A DNA stretch of 64,000 nt from Escherichia coli (GCF_044647545.1 NZ_CP172818.1), one strand, 5' to 3'. Shown: positions 54,776-62,599, counted from the stretch's first letter. The notes: a model not told the origin generated them from the letters alone. Numbers and translations: made by a program.

Positions 54776-55753
54776 TTACAGTAAATCTTCAATCTCACGG
54801 ATTTTTTGACTGACATCCCTGGTACCGGATGACTGAGCTTTACGATACAGATCGAGAGCCTGTCGGAGATCGACAGGTCTTCCTTCTCCGTAATGATACA
54901 TAATGGCAAGGTTATACCAGGCAGTGGCATTATCGCATTCAGCGGCTTTCGTAAACCATTCAAAGGCGGCCTGATAATCTTTCTCAACGCCTTGTCCATG
55001 TTTATACATATAACCGATGTTGACGTAAGCGCCGACGCTTTCCTGAGCGGCAGCCTTCAGATACCAGTACATCGCTTGCTTATAGTCCTGGTCCACCCCT
55101 TCGCCAGCGTTATAATCCCATGCAATTTGAAACTGGGCATGCCGATTACCCTGCTGTGCGCTTTTCAAATACCAGAATGCGGCGAGTGTCTTATTTTGAG
55201 CAACGCCTTCTCCGTCTTTATAGAGATCGGCCAGGTTGTCTTGCGCGTAACTATGGCCTTGTAATGCAGCTTGTTTGTACCAGAAAAATGCCAGCGCATA
55301 GTCTTGTGCGACTCCGTTGCCATTTCTGTACATCCACCCAAGATTATTTTGCGCATAAGACATTCCGCTCTCCGCGGCTATCTGATACCAGGCAACCGCT
55401 TCTTTATAGTTGGGGTCTTCTCCACGATCCTGTATCCAGCCAAGGGCGTTGGAAGCGAAAGTATGGCCTTGTAGGGCAGCTTTTTTCAGCCAAAAGATGG
55501 CTTGCCCATTATCTTTATGACGGCTTTTATCCTCGGTATACTTTTGCCCTAAGGAATATTGTGCTTCACAATGACCTTGCTCAGCGGCAAGCTTCAGCCA
55601 GTAAAAGGCCTTTTCGTCGTCCGGAGAGTCAATTGCGCTATCGCGATTATAATAAAACCCAATAATATATTGAGCCTCGCAATCGCCTTTTTCAGCACGT
55701 TCGATAATCTCATCTATTGATAAATTATCGCAGCAACTTGACGTAAAAATCAT
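54776..55753 (-). CDS. ybeQ: Sel1-repeat (TPR-like) protein, no signal peptide
   Basis: 325 aa from ATG at 55753; tandem roughly 36-aa repeats with recurring A-x-QG-x-x-A-Q-x-x-L-G / YxxG motifs. Confidence 0.88.
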   Translation of the reverse strand: MIFTSSCCDNLSIDEIIERAEKGDCEAQYIIGFYYNRDSAIDSPDDEKAFYWLKLAAEQGHCEAQYSLGQKYTEDKSRHKDNGQAIFWLKKAALQGHTFASNALGWIQDRGEDPNYKEAVAWYQIAAESGMSYAQNNLGWMYRNGNGVAQDYALAFFWYKQAALQGHSYAQDNLADLYKDGEGVAQNKTLAAFWYLKSAQQGNRHAQFQIAWDYNAGEGVDQDYKQAMYWYLKAAAQESVGAYVNIGYMYKHGQGVEKDYQAAFEWFTKAAECDNATAWYNLAIMYHYGEGRPVDLRQALDLYRKAQSSGTRDVSQKIREIEDLL

Positions 55754-55916
55754 TATCATTTCCTTATGGTTGCATATAAAGCATATTATATTTTTATGTG
55801 TTCCATTTTTGCGTAAGCCTTATTTTATGCGTATTATGTTGCGTCAGAAAAGTATAAATAAATGAGCCTCGCAACGTGGTTAATATTCATTGAATGAATA
55901 TTTAAGGATAAATTAT

Positions 55917-56624
55917 ATGGACATGGAGTCGCAAAAAATATTGTTTGCACTTTCCACTCCGATGGAAATACGCAATGAATGCTGTTTACCTTCGCATTCA
56001 TCCCCCAAAATGTATTTAGGTACACGCTTTTTTGACCTTTCTTCCTCCTGGGGAATTGATGACCGTGATGACCTGCTGCGCACAATTCACCGAATGATCG
56101 ATAACGGTCATGCCGCTCGGTTGGCAGGGCTTTATCACCGCTGGTTTCGTTATTCTCCGTGTGAATGGCGTGACTATCTTGCTGAACTAAATGAGCAAGG
56201 TCAGGCTTATGCGCAATTTGTCGCCAGCACCGCCGAATGCTGTGGCGAAGGGGGAATCAAAGCCTGGGATTATGTCCGGATGGGTTTTTTAAGCCGAATG
56301 GGCGTACTTAATAACTGGTTGAGTGAAGAAGAAAGCCTGTGGATCCAGTCGCGCATTCATCTACGGGCTCTACGTTATTATAGTAACTGGCAGCAATACT
56401 TTGCCGGTTATACCTTTGGTCGGCAATATTGGCAGTCTCCCGAGGATGATGATCTGCCTTTATTACGTGAATTCTTAGCGCGTAAAGAATACGACGATTC
56501 CGGCAATGATATGTTTTATCAATTATTTGCCAGTGACGATGCATATTACGCGACCTTACCCTGGCAACCACTGGCTGACTACCCCACATGCCCGGAAACG
56601 CTTAAGGATATGAGCGACCTATGA
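55917..56624 (+). CDS. ybeR: DUF1266-family protein, paralog of YbeU
   Basis: 235 aa from ATG at 55917; stop overlaps djlB start (ATGA). Confidence 0.88.
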
Positions 56625-58048
56625 AAAATTGCTGGAAGATTCTCGAAATAGAGGAAACGACTGACGTCGATATTATCCGCCGCGCTTATCTGGCGCTGTT
56701 ACCGTCCTTTCATCCAGAAACCGATCCGCAGGGTTTTAAACAACTTCGTCAGGCGTATGAGGACGCGCTACGGATTGCGCAGTCGCCTGCTAAATCTGTT
56801 TGGCAACCAGAAGAACATGAAGTTGCAGAACATGAAATTCTGCTCGCCTTTCGTGCGTTACTCGCCTCTGATAGCGAACGTTTTCTGCCCTCTGCCTGGC
56901 AGCGATTCATTCAGCAATTAAATTATTGCTCGATGGAAGATATTGATGAATTACGCTGGTCGCTGTGCACAATAGCCATGAACACTGCCCATTTATCCTT
57001 CGAGTGCGTGGTGTTATTAGCAGAAAGATTGCGGTGGTTGCAGGAGGAAAACGTCGGGGAAATAGACGAAGAAGAACTGGAATCCTTTTTATATGCCATT
57101 GCGAAGGGGAATGTTTTTAACTTCCAGACCATTCTGCATCTGCCCGTTGCCGTACAAAATGACACCATTGATTTTTACCAAATGTTCGCTCGGATTTGGT
57201 CATCGCATCCAGAATGGCTGACATTGTATTTAGCGCAACATCGCGCAGTGATTATCCCCGATGATGCAAATTTGCACAGAAATTTACTCCGCTGGTATAG
57301 CACAAGCCGTCTGGATATCCCCGAACTTCTGGATTACGCCCGGTCGTGGCGGGAAGCTGAACCTGATAATGAAGATGCGCGTTATTATGAATACGCGCAA
57401 CGCGTCTATTGTGGAGAAGGCGAAAGCCTGCTGGCAGAACTTTGTGACTACTGGCGCGAGTATCCCTCCACCCAGGCGGATGCTTTAATGTTGCAATGGT
57501 GCCGTCAGCATCGGGTCGATTATTACCCGTTAGTGGTGATGATGATTGAAGCGCGTGATCTGGTTAACGATCAGGGAAAACCGCTACTTTATGTCCCTGG
57601 TGACAGCGCTCGTACGCGTTTTCATTTATACGAAATACTCAGTGATGAAAAACTCTCTGCGCTGGGGCGTTCTCTGGTCGAGATGGTTTTGCACAAAGGA
57701 CGTAAGCCGCGGATCTCACTCACGCGTGATACAGAACATACCTTATGGTCATTATATCTAGTTGCCAAACAATTAGTGCAGGCCAGCCAACCGACAGAAG
57801 AATCATTAATGCCGATTGTGAGCCGCCTTGATGCAGAAGATCGTTGTCCTCTGGAAGCATTAATTATTCGACGGTTATTAATTCAGGCGGCGAATTTTAC
57901 CGAGAAGCAAACCGTCGAACCGGAGCCGCAACCGCAGTCGATGCCCGTTGACGATGGTGGGCCGGGCTGTCTGGGCGTCATCAAAATTATTTTCTACATT
58001 TTTATCTTTGCCGGTTTAATAGGGAAAATACTCCATCTGTTCGGGTGA
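56621..58048 (+). CDS. djlB: J-domain-like protein with C-terminal membrane anchor, paralog of DjlC
   Basis: 475 aa; N-terminal J-like helix pair with HPE where HPD is expected (HPETDP); C-terminal hydrophobic tail [20 protein letters not shown]. Confidence 0.9.
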
Positions 58049-58057
58049 CAGTCGACG

Positions 58058-58612
58058 TTAATGTGCGGGAAGCCCGGCAAGTAATCTTTCCGCGTTTTTG
58101 TAATGTTGTTTGGCGGCCAGTTTTAACCATTTTTGAGATTCATAATGGTTAACATTAATACCTGAGCCATTTCTGTAGATCAAACCCAAAGTATATTGAG
58201 CATGAGCATACCCTTGTTCAGCTGCTTCCTTATACCAGAGAATTGCTTTACGGGTATCGGGTTTGACCCCCAGACCTTTGAGGTAGATCCACCCCAGTTT
58301 ACTTTGCGCGCGTGGATTTTCCTGTTCCGCTGATTGCTCATACCAGTATCTCGCCTGTGTATAATCCAGTGGTTTACCGTCGCTACCATGAAGATAAAAT
58401 TCTCCAAGGCGATATTGCGACGTTGAGTGACCATGAATCGCGGAAAGCTCCGTGGCTGCCGTGGTGAATGGAAGACTGCCCGGTGAGCTTAAATAATCAA
58501 AGGCATAATTCGCCATGGCTTTATCACGCAACGTCGTTTTCTTGGGTTGGCTAATACAGGTTATTGCTGCAACTATAAATATTGCGAATGTATACATTAA
58601 TTTTTTATTCAT
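58058..58612 (-). CDS. ybeT: Sel1-repeat protein with N-terminal signal/anchor sequence
   Basis: 184 aa; hydrophobic N-terminus [21 protein letters not shown] then Sel1-type repeats. Confidence 0.88.
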
Positions 58613-58713
58613 GTGTGAATGCTTCGATTTTCTTTTTATTTTGAAAGCGTCAAGTTTATACTCATCAATAATAAAAAAGTAGTCAGTTAATGCACTTAAG
58701 GGATTATTAACAA

Positions 58714-59421
58714 ATGAATAAGGAAGAACAATATCTTCTTTTTGCGCTTTCTACGCCCATGGAAATACTTAATCAGGGTTGCAAGCCCGCGCATGACTCG
58801 CCAAAAATGTATACCGGGATAAAAGAATTCGATCTCTCATCATCCTGGGGAATAAATAATCGTGATGATTTAATTCAGACTATTTATCAGATGACCGATG
58901 ATGGTCATGCCAATGATTTAGCTGGCTTATATCTGACATGGCATCGCTCTTCCCCTGAAGAGTGGAAAGCATTAAATGCTGGTGGCTCGGAGAGAGGGTT
59001 GATTTATACCCAATTCGTTGCCCAAACCGCTATGTGTTGTGGGGAAGGGGGAATCAAAGCCTGGGATTATGTGCGGATGGGTTTTTTATCACGGGTTGGT
59101 GTGCTCAACAAGTGGCTGACGGAAGACGAGAGTTTATGGCTGCAATCGCGCGTCTATATACGAGCACACCATTACTATCACAGCTGGATGCACTATTTTT
59201 CCGCCTATTCGTTAGGGCGTCTCTACTGGCAATCTTCTCAGTGCGAAGACAACGCTTCGCTACGCGAGGCGCTAACCCTGTACAAATACGATAGCGCCGG
59301 GAGTCGGATGTTCGAAGAGCTGGCAGCGGGAAGCGACCGTTTCTATGCCACGCTTCCCTGGCAGCCATTAACTGTCCAGCCTGAATGCCCGGTAACGCTT
59401 AAGGATGTGAGCGACCTATGA
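58714..59421 (+). CDS. ybeU: DUF1266-family protein, paralog of YbeR
   Basis: 235 aa; stop overlaps djlC start (ATGA). Confidence 0.9.
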
Positions 59422-60869
59422 AAACATGTTGGCAAATCCTCGAAATTGAAAGCACGACGCAAATAGACATTATCCGCCAGGCTTATCTTGTTCGCTTACC
59501 GTTGTGTCATCCCGAAACCGATCCGCAGGGGTTTAAAGCATTACGCCAGGCCTATGAAGAGGCGCTGCGACTGGCGGTAAATCCTGTCGAGGAGGCAGAT
59601 GATGAAGAAAAAGATGCCGCCGCTGAACATGAAATACTACGTGCATTCAGGGCATTACTGGATTCTGAAAGTGATCGTTTTCAGCCCTCCGCCTGGCAGA
59701 AATTTATTCAGCAATTAAATACCTGGAACATGGAGGATGTCGATCAATTACGCTGGCCGCTGTGTGCAGTCGCTATAGAAGCGCGATATCTTTCATTAAA
59801 TTGTGCTTCTTTGCTGGCAGAGCGTTTGAACTGGCATTCGTTTAATGACAGCGAAGGAATGGATGAGGAAGAAAGGGAGGCTTTTCTTGAGGCCATTCAG
59901 GCTGGTGATTGTTTCGATTTCCTTAGCCTTCTGGAATATCCCGTCGCGTTGCAGAACCAGACTGTTGAGTATTACTTCGCGCTGGAACGCTGCTGCCGTT
60001 ACCATCCTGACTATGTCACTGCGTTTATGGCAATGGAAGGTCCGTGGTTCATTCCTGATGATGTCAAGTTACATCGCAAACTGTTGCGCTGGTACAGCTC
60101 GGTGAAAACAGGTATGGCGGAACTTATTCCTGTTGCCCAACAGTGGCAAGCAGAAAATCCAGAAAGCGAAGATGCCCGTTATTACCAGTGTGCGCAACGG
60201 TTGTACTGTGGCGAGGGGGAAAGCCTGCTTGCCGATCTCTGCGCATACCGGGAGAGTTACCCATCTACACAAGCTGATAATTTGTTGTTGCAGTGGAGCA
60301 AGCGTCATTGCCCGGATTATTTCGCGTTATTAGTGATGGTTATCGAAGCGCGAAGCATGATAGATGCGCAAGGTCAACCGTTGAAATATGTTCCTGGTGA
60401 GAGCGCCCGGACGCGGCTGTTATGGGCGGAAATTTTACATAGCGGAAAATTATCGCCGTTAGGTCAATCGTTTATTGAGTCGTTATTCTTCAAGCGCAAA
60501 GCATGGGCATGGTGGAAATCGAGAGTCGGTAGCGAGACAGAACAAGATTCACCGTTACTGGATTTGTATCGGGTAGCGGAACAGGTTGTGCTGGAAGCGT
60601 TCCCGAAACAAGAGATGCTGGCCCGTCTTAATACAAGGCTGGAAGGTGGAGATGCTCATCCATTAGAGGCCATTATCACGCGGATGCTGTTGACGAAAGT
60701 GAAACTCGAGCCGGAGGATGAAGATGTCGATGAGCCAACACCTGAAAACCACGAAGAAAAAAATGATGAGGATGAAAAACCACAGAGCATTACCAGCATT
60801 ATCAAAATCAGCTTAACGGTGCTGGTGATAGGTTATGCTCTCGGAAAAATCGCGATGTTGTTTAGCTGA
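59418..60869 (+). CDS. djlC: J-domain-like co-chaperone of HscC with C-terminal membrane anchor
   Basis: 483 aa; N-terminal J-like region with HPETDP; acidic linker; C-terminal TM tail [17 protein letters not shown]. Confidence 0.92.
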
Positions 60870-60884
60870 GGATGTGTTTTTTGC

Positions 60885-60925
60885 GCCGATGCCGGATGCA
60901 GCGTTTATGCCGCATCCGGCAGCCG
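60885..60925. repeat. REP (repetitive extragenic palindrome) element between convergent djlC and hscC
   Basis: gccggatgcagcgtttatgccgcatccggc matches the GCCGGATGCGGCG... REP consensus family. Confidence 0.6.
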
Positions 60926-60928
60926 TGT

Positions 60929-62599
60929 TTAAGGGATCTCAATAGCCAAATAATCGCTCGCCCGTCGCCGAACTTCATCGACGCGGGCCATATCGTTTGA
61001 CTGCAACGCCGCATCAAAATCGGTGATCACCCGGCCGATCTCTTCTCGCTCGTCACCCAGCGCCCGCGCCCACAACTCTTCCAGTTTGGCCTTAAAGGTG
61101 CGGTTGATGAGCATATCGCGCGGATAAATTTTCAATGCGGATAACCGCGTCCGACTCTCTTCAATCTGCTGTGCGCTCAATGTTACAGGACTGTGATTAA
61201 TGACTCTGGACTTAACGCTGCCGTCTTCCAGAAGCACGTCAACTTCAAGCAACCCGTTGATATCATAACTAAAGCGAATATCAATCGACTGATAAGCCCC
61301 GGTTTTCTTCAACGGCACATCGAAGGATTCCACCAGAATGTTATTTTTAACTTTGTGGTTTTCTCCCTGATAGACGTTAACCGTAATTGAATCCTGTTCC
61401 CGGTGCATGGTCGAGTAAGTTTCTACACGCGACACCGGTACAGTGGTGTTTCGTTCAATAATCGGCGAGAAAATGCCGGAAACGCCCTGGCGGTTAACTT
61501 CAACACCCAACGAGTAAGGGCAAATATCAGTGAGGATCACCTCTTCAATATCTTCACTGCGTAAGCGGCAGGCGGCCTGGATTGCTGCGCCCAGCGCGAC
61601 AATGGTGCTCGGATCGTAACTTTGATACGGTAATTTGCCAAACAGACGCACGGCGATTCGCTGCACCAGCGGCATTTGTGATGCGCCGCCAACCAGCACC
61701 AGACTGTCGATTTGACTTGGCTTCAGACGTGCATCGCGCAACGCCTGTTCAATCGGTACTCGCAAGCGATTGAGCAGCGGCAACCACAAATCTTCCAGTT
61801 CGTTCTCGTAAAATTCGCACTCACGCGTTTCTTCCTGACACTGCCAGCTAATTTGCAGCGGTAATTGATTGCTGCATTTTGCCGCTTCCACGCTGGTGTA
61901 CAGGGCTGCCAGCTCACTTTCGTTGAGCATGTTTTTAGCCACTGCGGCGCGTTTTAAAACTTCATCCACCAGCATATGAGTAAAATCTTCGCCGCCAAGA
62001 AAGTTGTCGCCAGCGGAGGCGTGAACTTCAATCACCGGCGTGGCGTATTCGAGCACCGTGACGTCAAACGTGCCGCCACCGAGATCAAAAACCAGCGAGC
62101 GGGTATTTTGTTGCGTATGCAGGCCATATGCCATCGCAGCTGCTGTGGGTTCATTAATTAAGCGTACCGCATTTAACCCGGCTAACTCCGCTGCTAAACG
62201 GGTATGCTTGCGTTGTTCATCGCTGAAATAAGCCGGAACGGAGATCACCACATCTTTAATCGGACGTTGCAGAAATTCTTCGGCATCTTCTTTTAATGAG
62301 CGTAATACCAAAGAGGACAGTTCTGGCGCGTTAAATGTGTCGCTGCCTAACCGCCAGTTGGTATTACTGCCCATTGCACGTTTAAATAACGCTGCCGTTT
62401 TATCCGGATGCGAAGTACGCCGTGATACAGCCGGTTTTCCGACTAAAATATGATTATTTTCATCCATGCTAATTATGGATGGTGTTAAATATTCACCGAA
62501 CTTATTTGGAATTAATTGCGCGGCACCGTCTTTCCAGACGGCAATTAAACTATTGGTAGTACCGAGATCGATACCAATGGCGAGTTCTGCATTATCCAT
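60929..62599 (-). CDS. hscC: Specialised Hsp70-family chaperone (Hsc62)
   Basis: 556 aa; Hsp70 ATPase motifs IDLGTTNS and DLGGGTFD; shorter C-terminus than DnaK. Confidence 0.95.
   Translation of the reverse strand: MDNAELAIGIDLGTTNSLIAVWKDGAAQLIPNKFGEYLTPSIISMDENNHILVGKPAVSRRTSHPDKTAALFKRAMGSNTNWRLGSDTFNAPELSSLVLRSLKEDAEEFLQRPIKDVVISVPAYFSDEQRKHTRLAAELAGLNAVRLINEPTAAAMAYGLHTQQNTRSLVFDLGGGTFDVTVLEYATPVIEVHASAGDNFLGGEDFTHMLVDEVLKRAAVAKNMLNESELAALYTSVEAAKCSNQLPLQISWQCQEETRECEFYENELEDLWLPLLNRLRVPIEQALRDARLKPSQIDSLVLVGGASQMPLVQRIAVRLFGKLPYQSYDPSTIVALGAAIQAACRLRSEDIEEVILTDICPYSLGVEVNRQGVSGIFSPIIERNTTVPVSRVETYSTMHREQDSITVNVYQGENHKVKNNILVESFDVPLKKTGAYQSIDIRFSYDINGLLEVDVLLEDGSVKSRVINHSPVTLSAQQIEESRTRLSALKIYPRDMLINRTFKAKLEELWARALGDEREEIGRVITDFDAALQSNDMARVDEVRRRASDYLAIEIP

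Follow-up and report, generated by a model that had tools for sequence, protein, structure and literature searches.

The third Hsp70 system of Escherichia coli, formed by HscC (Hsc62) and the J-proteins DjlC (Hsc56/YbeV) and DjlB (YbeS), was described by Yoshimune 2002 and Kluck 2002, whose accounts are taken here as they are cited in PMC8215388. As published, it is a two-component Hsp70/J-protein system. The same genes lie in a 64,000-nt stretch of E. coli DNA (GCF_044647545.1, NZ_CP172818.1; hereafter the window), where each djl gene is overlapped by a gene for a DUF1266 protein (ybeR and ybeU) and where two Sel1-repeat genes, ybeQ and ybeT, belong to the same block. The ybeQ-ybeR-djlB-ybeU-djlC cassette has been mentioned in passing (PMC6935094). 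The locus and the Hsp70/J-protein pairing are thus already known; what is new is DUF1266 as a conserved, coupled third component, some Firmicutes included. Coupled cross-phylum DUF1266 genes are not discussed in the literature searched, in which DUF1266 is named only in a transcriptome table and no function is given for the DUF1266 or Sel1 genes. This agrees with the initial annotation of the window, which was made from the sequence alone and knew of no function assigned to either.

HscC reportedly has an effect on sigma-70, a finding ascribed to Arifuzzaman 2002. Deletion of hscC, or of djlB together with djlC, causes sensitivity to Cd2+, and HscC contributes to UV resistance (PMC8215388, PMC13254874). 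DjlC alone stimulates the ATPase of HscC, DjlB is assumed to do likewise (PMC8215388, PMC13254874), and the stimulation is J-protein-specific according to Kluck 2002 as cited in PMC8215388. Insertion into the plasma membrane has been shown for DjlC, and DjlB is also described as tail-anchored; in both proteins, HPE serves as a tolerated variant of the HPD motif (PMC8215388, PMC13254874). Approximately 1,700 prokaryotic HPE J-proteins have been counted, most of them without further annotated domains (PMC10410713).

The locus resembles HscA-HscB-IscU in that a specialised Hsp70 and an exclusive J-protein have a third protein encoded alongside. However, DUF1266 is not homologous to IscU, nor Djl to HscB, and the Djl proteins are membrane-anchored and belong to duplicated pairs. 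The CbpA-CbpM system, in which a J-protein has a specific modulator encoded in its operon, differs in its gene order, since CbpM is encoded downstream of cbpA, whereas the DUF1266 gene lies upstream of djl with a stop/start overlap; moreover, exported DUF1266 modules exist that have nothing to do with J-proteins. In eukaryotes, the TPR co-chaperones Hop and CHIP serve Hsp70/Hsp90. TPR-type repeats likewise accompany the Hsp70 machine considered here (within the Djl chain in Clostridium and Paenibacillus, and as the adjacently encoded Sel1 protein YbeQ in enterics), although this relation is by domain class only.

DUF1266 proteins as proposed partners of Djl

HscC of the window belongs to the short HscC subfamily: it has 556 aa, shows Hsp70 homology and is distinct from DnaK and HscA, its NCBIfam scores lying far under both cut-offs (385 vs 648 bits for DnaK, 379 vs 708 for HscA). 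DjlB and DjlC are class C J-proteins with HPE in place of HPD (HPETDPQGF in both), and the motif HPE..DP.GF recurs in 82 of the 86 Djl proteins of the loci surveyed below and in the majority of those Djl proteins from Vibrio and Firmicutes that we inspected. The match of DjlC to the Pfam DnaJ model is weak (E 0.084), which fits its unusual HPE J-domain. A single C-terminal transmembrane segment is predicted for each protein (residues 446–475 in DjlB, 457–483 in DjlC) and, together with the reported membrane insertion of DjlC (PMC8215388), supports the partly membrane-tethered system that the initial annotation had envisaged. For the helical DjlB_C domain of DjlC, a PDB sequence search and a Foldseek search with the fused model described below returned only insignificant matches to TPR superhelices.

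To survey gammaproteobacteria, we collected 78 loci from one-genome-per-species contigs with a YbeU-clade profile, so that the sample is restricted to this clade, and annotated them by open reading frame (ORF) calling followed by phmmer searches with the seven window proteins as queries. The genera covered are Escherichia, Klebsiella, Erwinia, Rahnella, Yersinia, Pectobacterium, Gilliamella and Marinobacter, together with approximately 55 Pseudomonas. A DUF1266 gene, an overlapping djl gene and a gene for an Hsp70 of HscC size follow each other in this order in 74 of the 78 loci and thus in all 74 that can be evaluated, since in the remaining four the contig ends inside the DUF1266 or djl gene; the Hsp70 gene is convergent in 73. 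All 83 DUF1266-djl junctions overlap (79 as ATGA, one as GTGA and three with 1–3 nt). The DUF1266 gene is therefore translationally coupled to djl in each related gammaproteobacterial locus examined, and the window itself holds the three-gene module, with ATGA overlaps in both pairs and hscC adjacent. Outside the core Enterobacteriaceae, Djl is approximately 890–920 aa long and shares the HPE J-domain and the helical region (E. coli residues 1 to ~350), which are followed by ~450 further residues as well as two transmembrane segments and a DUF805-like end.

The association extends beyond this clade. The genes for DUF1266, a J/DjlB_C protein and an Hsp70 stand in this order in Vibrio aerogenes, as do those for an Hsp70, a J-TPR-DjlB_C protein and DUF1266 in Clostridium carboxidivorans; the DUF1266 proteins of both are only 22–26% identical to YbeU. 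In Paenibacillus sp. RC67 (L093:7001-13119), two (TPR-)Djl/DUF1266 pairs come after HscC, which represents an independent duplication of the pair in a Firmicute. DUF1266 and Djl have been duplicated jointly, as pairs, in E. coli, Salmonella, Citrobacter, Pokkaliibacter and Paenibacillus. The co-occurrence of DUF1266, djl and hscC homologs outside the window, which was expected from the latter, is thus seen in every evaluable locus and again in Vibrio, Clostridium and Paenibacillus.

YbeU is a member of the DUF1266 family, its residues 41–216 covering positions 2–175 of the 175 positions of PF06889 (E 3.2e-44). The AlphaFold2 (AF2) model of YbeU is all-alpha, with a predicted local-distance difference test score (pLDDT) of 94 and a predicted template-modelling score (pTM) of 0.91. 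It has no structural relative in the PDB, and no sequence or fold relative was detected outside the DUF1266 family. Residues W45, H65, W117, D118, R121, R127, E139, W158, G168 and W172 show no or almost no variation within the family. Among 43 multidomain relatives, DUF1266 is fused to Cu_amine_oxidN1 (7/43), TPR (4–6), SLH, LRR and, in one case, a J-domain; 26 of these 43 have signal-peptide-like N termini, vs none of 22 YbeU-clade proteins. Because of these fusions to exported and surface domains, we regard DUF1266 as a self-standing module that also works where Hsp70 and ATP are absent, a property more in keeping with binding or an adaptor function than with nucleotide exchange or J-protein inhibition. 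Its existence as an exported module also indicates that DUF1266 probably has a binding or catalytic activity of its own. Two database entries close to YbeU are probably of other origin than their labels say: an end-of-contig DUF1266 fragment (97% to E. coli YbeU) on a contig labelled Paenibacillus sp. USDA918EY (L012) is probably E. coli contamination or a chimera, and a 94%-identical AFDB protein assigned to 'Trichuris trichiura' seems to be a similar case.

The J-domain fusion is a metagenomic protein of 497 aa (P0260; L092:233-1726), in which an HPE J-domain, TPR repeats and DUF1266 follow each other in one chain. No Hsp70 gene is found in the 5 kb downstream of P0260; upstream, the contig offers only ~230 nt, and a partial ORF there was rejected as an Hsp70 on examination. 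We also modelled YbeU joined to DjlC(1–440) through a (G4S)6 linker with AF2, using a paired alignment of 28 sequences. The model reaches a pLDDT of 84.5 and a pTM of 0.77 in spite of the disordered 30-residue linker. Had YbeU (235 residues, one third of the chain) been left unplaced relative to DjlC, we would have expected a pTM of approximately 0.5–0.6, and the higher value suggests that the two are placed with respect to each other.

Stop/start overlap in all surveyed junctions, one-to-one co-duplication and the single-chain fusion argue that DUF1266 acts with the J-protein. With modest confidence, we lean towards the explanation that each DUF1266 protein is the cognate partner or adaptor subunit of its Djl, the two jointly directing HscC to inner-membrane clients. 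The pairs ybeR-djlB and ybeU-djlC, which arose by tandem duplication, share one HscC. Each DUF1266 protein would be made in step with its Djl and bind the cytoplasmic helical domain of the latter, yielding a two-subunit platform on the inner face of the membrane that chooses clients; the HPE J-domain would then trigger ATP hydrolysis by HscC, which clamps the chosen client. Two diverged pairs would provide two specificities, and the evolutionary rates given below fit a conserved engine (HscC) with diverging specificity subunits. A more far-reaching version, quite unlikely in our judgement, would make HscC, Djl and DUF1266, with optional TPR/Sel1 repeats, a cross-phylum three-component machine for membrane surveillance. 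DUF1266 would here be a ligand or protein sensor built on the invariant His, Asp, Arg, Glu and Trp residues that decides when and on what the silent Hsp70 acts, e.g., damaged or foreign membrane-associated proteins, and the diverging pairs would represent different sensing specificities.

Several observations weigh against the adaptor explanation. The docking of YbeU to DjlC rests on the pTM of the fused model, which is an indirect measure. DjlC stimulated HscC in vitro without a DUF1266 protein (PMC8215388), and DUF1266 is therefore dispensable for basic J-protein function. The invariant polar residues H65, D118, R121, R127 and E139 could form an enzymatic or small-ligand pocket instead of a docking surface. 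Since the gammaproteobacterial counts started from DUF1266, they are silent on the share of hscC-djl loci that have no DUF1266 gene. Three Firmicute/Negativicute loci were sampled in reverse, starting from proteins that NCBI names HscC: a Djl gene is adjacent to HscC in all three, but DUF1266 is present in Paenibacillus only, and the HscC-Djl loci of Acetivibrio and Sporomusa contain no DUF1266 gene within 7 kb. Pokkaliibacter sp. GCA_046614695.1 (L005/L007) has two DUF1266-Djl pairs and a third Djl without DUF1266, with one Hsp70 after all of them. As the reverse samples keep Djl and only Paenibacillus has DUF1266, HscC and Djl are the invariant core of the system, and DUF1266 is a very frequent but not universal third member. 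The Pokkaliibacter locus adjoins a PspA/DUF2170/DUF2491/DUF350 membrane-stress cluster.

The duplicated pair and the Sel1 genes

The initial annotation had described a tandem duplication of a three-part Sel1/DUF1266/J-protein module around a single hscC. Two of the three parts are indeed paralogous along their full length: YbeR and YbeU are 61% identical (E 3e-109), DjlB and DjlC 49% (E 8e-161). With the neighbourhoods described above, this bears out an HscC-centred Hsp70 system with two paralogous DUF1266/J-protein pairs. For YbeQ and YbeT, alignment yields repeat-to-repeat Sel1 similarity only (33–37%, in several registers). At the DNA level, the duplication has a single register of 2797 nt and 72–75% identity and comprises ybeR/djlB vs ybeU/djlC only, whereas the DNA matches between ybeQ and ybeT fall outside this register. 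The Sel1 proteins are thus related through their repeats but are not collinear duplicates, and in Salmonella and Citrobacter the pairs stand back to back without ybeT. The duplicated unit therefore consists of two genes, for a DUF1266 protein and a tail-anchored HPE J-protein, and not of three with a Sel1 gene.

Within the duplicated DNA, a 29-nt block shared by ybeR and ybeU (positions in Table 1) occurs in exactly two identical copies, as had been noted, and gave 0 matches in 100 shuffles; the motif at the stop/start junctions also occurs exactly twice, and never in shuffles. In the block, both Escherichia paralogs share synonymous codons, while those of Salmonella and Citrobacter differ. 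We therefore rejected conservation alone as the cause of the identity; a short tract of gene conversion between ybeR and ybeU appears to account for it best. In this strain, ybeU matches ybeR for 16 nt beyond the block with one mismatch (56247-56291 / 59044-59088); K-12 is unlike it in this respect.

Salmonella and Citrobacter carry ybeL, a YbeQ ortholog in the same position (49% and 60% identity, respectively), the two DUF1266-Djl pairs and hscC. No ybeT was found between the pairs in either genus, whereas all four Escherichia genomes inspected have it there. Genes in corresponding positions mostly resemble each other more than paralogs do, clearly so for YbeR, YbeU and DjlC and ambiguously for DjlB; YbeR, e.g., matches the first Salmonella DUF1266 gene, its positional ortholog, at 66% vs 60%. 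As both genera carry both pairs and positional orthologs are mostly closer, the pair duplication is older than the split of Escherichia, Salmonella and Citrobacter. By the same comparison, ybeQ was gained at about that time and ybeT is a late insertion specific to Escherichia, so that the Sel1 genes are late additions to the trio in particular lineages. A Sel1 gene lies within 10 kb in only three of the 78 surveyed loci, all from Escherichia, contrary to the co-occurrence expected at first, and the single trio of Klebsiella spallanzanii, with a short Djl, comes without such a gene. Upstream of ybeQ, Escherichia sp. MOD1-EC7003 (L008:3648-5003) has two extra ORF fragments of 93 and 344 aa that resemble Djl and probably belong to a broken third copy. 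In Salmonella, a 412-aa ORF (L086:15082-16320, minus strand) lies between hscC and rihA; it has no Pfam, NCBIfam or PHROG match and no counterpart in the E. coli window or in Citrobacter.

Both Sel1 proteins consist of tandem repeats of ~36 residues, eight in YbeQ and three in YbeT. Their topologies differ as initially described: YbeQ has no hydrophobic segment, and YbeT has hydrophobic N-terminal residues 4–23 that may be a signal or an anchor. YbeT thus looks exported or signal-anchored and would be separated by the membrane from the J-domain, DUF1266 and HscC, all of which are cytoplasmic. It is unlikely to be a direct partner because of this signal, its recent gain and the Djl anchors, which leave few periplasmic residues. 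For YbeQ, a scaffold role is plausible by analogy, since TPR-type repeats recur as fusions in HscC-Djl systems (to Djl in Clostridium and Paenibacillus, to the J-domain and DUF1266 in P0260). Such repeats would then be a recurrent but optional scaffold, part of the Djl chain in Firmicutes and possibly supplied by cytoplasmic YbeQ in enterics.

Layout and status of the block in E. coli

The block is E. coli chromosomal DNA; its sequence is that of strain FDAARGOS_497 (100% identity), and most other E. coli match it at ~96.5%. RefSeq gives the gene order ybeL, ybeQ(-), ybeR(+), djlB(+), ybeT(-), ybeU(+), djlC(+), hscC(-), rihA, and our ORF calls coincide with the RefSeq coordinates (Table 1). 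Gene positions, the divergent and convergent arrangement and the ATGA overlap of each DUF1266 stop with the djl start are as the initial annotation had them, as is an element between djlC and hscC that it assigned to the repetitive extragenic palindromic (REP) family. The hairpin found there has a folding energy of -27 kcal/mol (z -3.3) and the putatively REP-like palindrome GCCGGATGC...GCATCCGGC. In the intergenic regions, Rfam gave no structured RNA at the gathering threshold, and a promoter and terminator scan gave nothing above shuffle expectation.

Table 1. Features of the hscC block, with positions counted from the first nucleotide of the window
Feature	Coordinates	Strand	Description
ybeQ	54776..55753	-	Cytoplasmic, 8 Sel1 repeats (Pfam); divergent from ybeR; ORF call and RefSeq
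ybeQ/ybeR divergent promoter region	55754..55916	none	AT-rich, GC down to ~41%; from sequence
ybeR	55917..56624	+	DUF1266 protein, copy 1; RefSeq "DUF1266 domain-containing protein"; 61% to YbeU
DNA duplication in register, copy 1	56207..56979	+	Contains 29-nt block 56247-56275 and junction 56601-56627
djlB	56621..58048	+	Tail-anchored class C J-protein, HPE motif, copy 1; start overlaps ybeR stop (ATGA)
ybeT	58058..58612	-	Small, 3 Sel1 repeats (Pfam), N-terminal signal/anchor segment
ybeT/ybeU divergent promoter region	58613..58713	none	AT-rich; from sequence
ybeU	58714..59421	+	DUF1266 protein, copy 2; Pfam PF06889, E 3e-44; AF2 model all-alpha
DNA duplication in register, copy 2	59004..59776	+	Contains 29-nt block 59044-59072 and junction 59398-59424
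djlC	59418..60869	+	Tail-anchored HPE J-protein, HscC co-chaperone (PMC8215388); start overlaps ybeU stop (ATGA)
REP-like palindromic hairpin	60883..60928	none	Between convergent djlC and hscC
hscC	60929..62599	-	Specialised Hsp70, 556 aa; RefSeq molecular chaperone HscC

The block is present over at least 80% of its length in 3,661 of 5,426 complete E. coli genomes and at least partially in 4,448, and in 968 of the 5,426 it is absent, with ybeL directly beside rihA. IS1-mediated and internal deletions occur: several strains (L002:7288-7985, H13-H16) retain little or nothing of the block and carry IS1 between ybeL and rihA, and some IS1 deletion strains keep fragments annotated as tetratricopeptide repeat protein and Hsp70 family protein. 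The GC content of the block is 41–50% vs 51–54% in the flanks. ybeT and ybeU-djlC appear in an H-NS regulon list and are raised by SlyA overexpression (PMC5797941), and in an hns mutant of enteroaggregative E. coli 042 at 25 °C, a DUF1266 gene, not mapped to ybeR or ybeU, is up 308-fold (PMC7582179). The block is a dispensable island, and under laboratory conditions H-NS silences it.

All seven genes are under purifying selection. The ratio of non-synonymous to synonymous substitution rates (dN/dS) is 0.07–0.18 for the six accessory genes, 0.035–0.065 for hscC and 0.005–0.034 for the flanks, and in view of the values for the accessory genes we rejected the idea that the silenced island is undergoing pseudogenisation. 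When E. coli is compared with Salmonella, HscC retains 83% identity, DUF1266 63–66%, Djl 47–54% and YbeQ 49%, vs 91–95% for the flanking genes. We rejected a mobile element as the nature of the block, as tblastn against plasmids gave only mislabelled pieces of E. coli chromosome and the megaplasmids of Erwinia persicina. On the latter (130–165 kb; H31-H34), a gene for a YbeU-like DUF1266 protein (38% identity) is plasmid-borne and not chromosomal. Location in a defence island, raised for checking at the outset, found no backing. A PADLOC scan of the seven proteins gave no match for DUF1266, Djl or HscC and only weak repeat-level matches of YbeQ and YbeT to PtuA; PHROGs gave none for DUF1266 or Djl and only generic Sel1 and Hsp70 families; and the literature, searched for Hsp70/J-domain systems that act against phage, yielded only unrelated DnaJ-bNACHT work.

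Alternative roles of DUF1266 and significance

DUF1266 might instead be a dedicated client, IscU-like, that the J-protein hands over to the Hsp70 for remodelling. HscA, a specialised Hsp70, has essentially one operon-encoded client, the trio is tightly conserved with translationally coupled genes, and DUF1266 is an independent module whose conserved polar residues suggest an intrinsic activity that could be switched by a chaperone. We nevertheless consider this unlikely, since a single chain of J-domain, TPR and DUF1266 has the architecture of a class C J-protein with a targeting domain and since DUF1266 is duplicated one-to-one with Djl while HscC stays single; in the AF2 model, moreover, the conserved N- and C-terminal stretches are predicted to be folded helices of high pLDDT and not exposed linear Hsp70 motifs. 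Slightly less probable again is a regulator that would mask the J-domain in the manner of CbpM and gate the access of Djl to HscC. E. coli offers a precedent for a J-protein-specific inhibitor (PMC8215388), matched amounts with Djl are expected from one operon, and the pTM of the fused model would also be compatible with docking on the J-domain. Covalent fusion to a J-domain would be odd for an inhibitor, however, and many DUF1266 domains are exported or part of surface modules that have no J-domain; in general searches, which included no direct comparison with CbpM, DUF1266 had no detectable relative outside its own family.

The two remaining alternatives concern the block as a whole. In the model of the initial annotation, Sel1, DUF1266 and J-protein form a functional duplicated unit with the Sel1 proteins as obligate subunits. 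The arrangement is present twice in the window, the position of ybeQ is kept in Escherichia, Salmonella and Citrobacter, and elsewhere Djl or DUF1266 proteins contain fused TPR-type repeats, but we find the model improbable given the scarcity of Sel1 genes in the survey, the Klebsiella spallanzanii trio, the lack of ybeT between the Salmonella and Citrobacter pairs, the out-of-register, repeat-level similarity of YbeQ and YbeT and the export or anchor signal of YbeT. A weaker idea survives in the fusions of TPR-type repeats to Firmicute Djl and to the J-domain and DUF1266 in P0260. We give least credence to the idea that the block serves in conflict or defence, directed at phage or host, with rapidly evolving adaptors as sensors of an invader and HscC as the effector engine. 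The empty sites and IS1 deletions of an accessory island, the low GC content, H-NS silencing and adaptors that diverge far faster than the flanks would all suit it. Against it stand the lack of a dedicated PADLOC component beyond weak Sel1-PtuA repeat matches, of PHROG matches for DUF1266 and Djl and of any effector-like domain, the absence from plasmids other than the Erwinia megaplasmids, a chromosomal position that is constant from Citrobacter to Escherichia, and a dN/dS that over whole genes is purifying and not diversifying.

A DUF1266 protein that serves each Djl as cognate adaptor is thus the explanation we favour. The role and clients of HscC have been elusive for ~25 years, with Cd2+ and UV sensitivity and the reported effect on sigma-70 as the only leads. 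The coupling of DUF1266 to Djl, its occurrence in some Firmicutes and the single-chain fusion add a third component to what had been a two-component working model of HscC, and in vitro work with DjlC alone may have missed a subunit. Cognate DUF1266-Djl complexes would offer a handle on binding, on the effect upon HscC ATPase and, as bait, on clients. For DUF1266, a Pfam family without function or solved structure, the association with Djl and HscC provides a first functional context.

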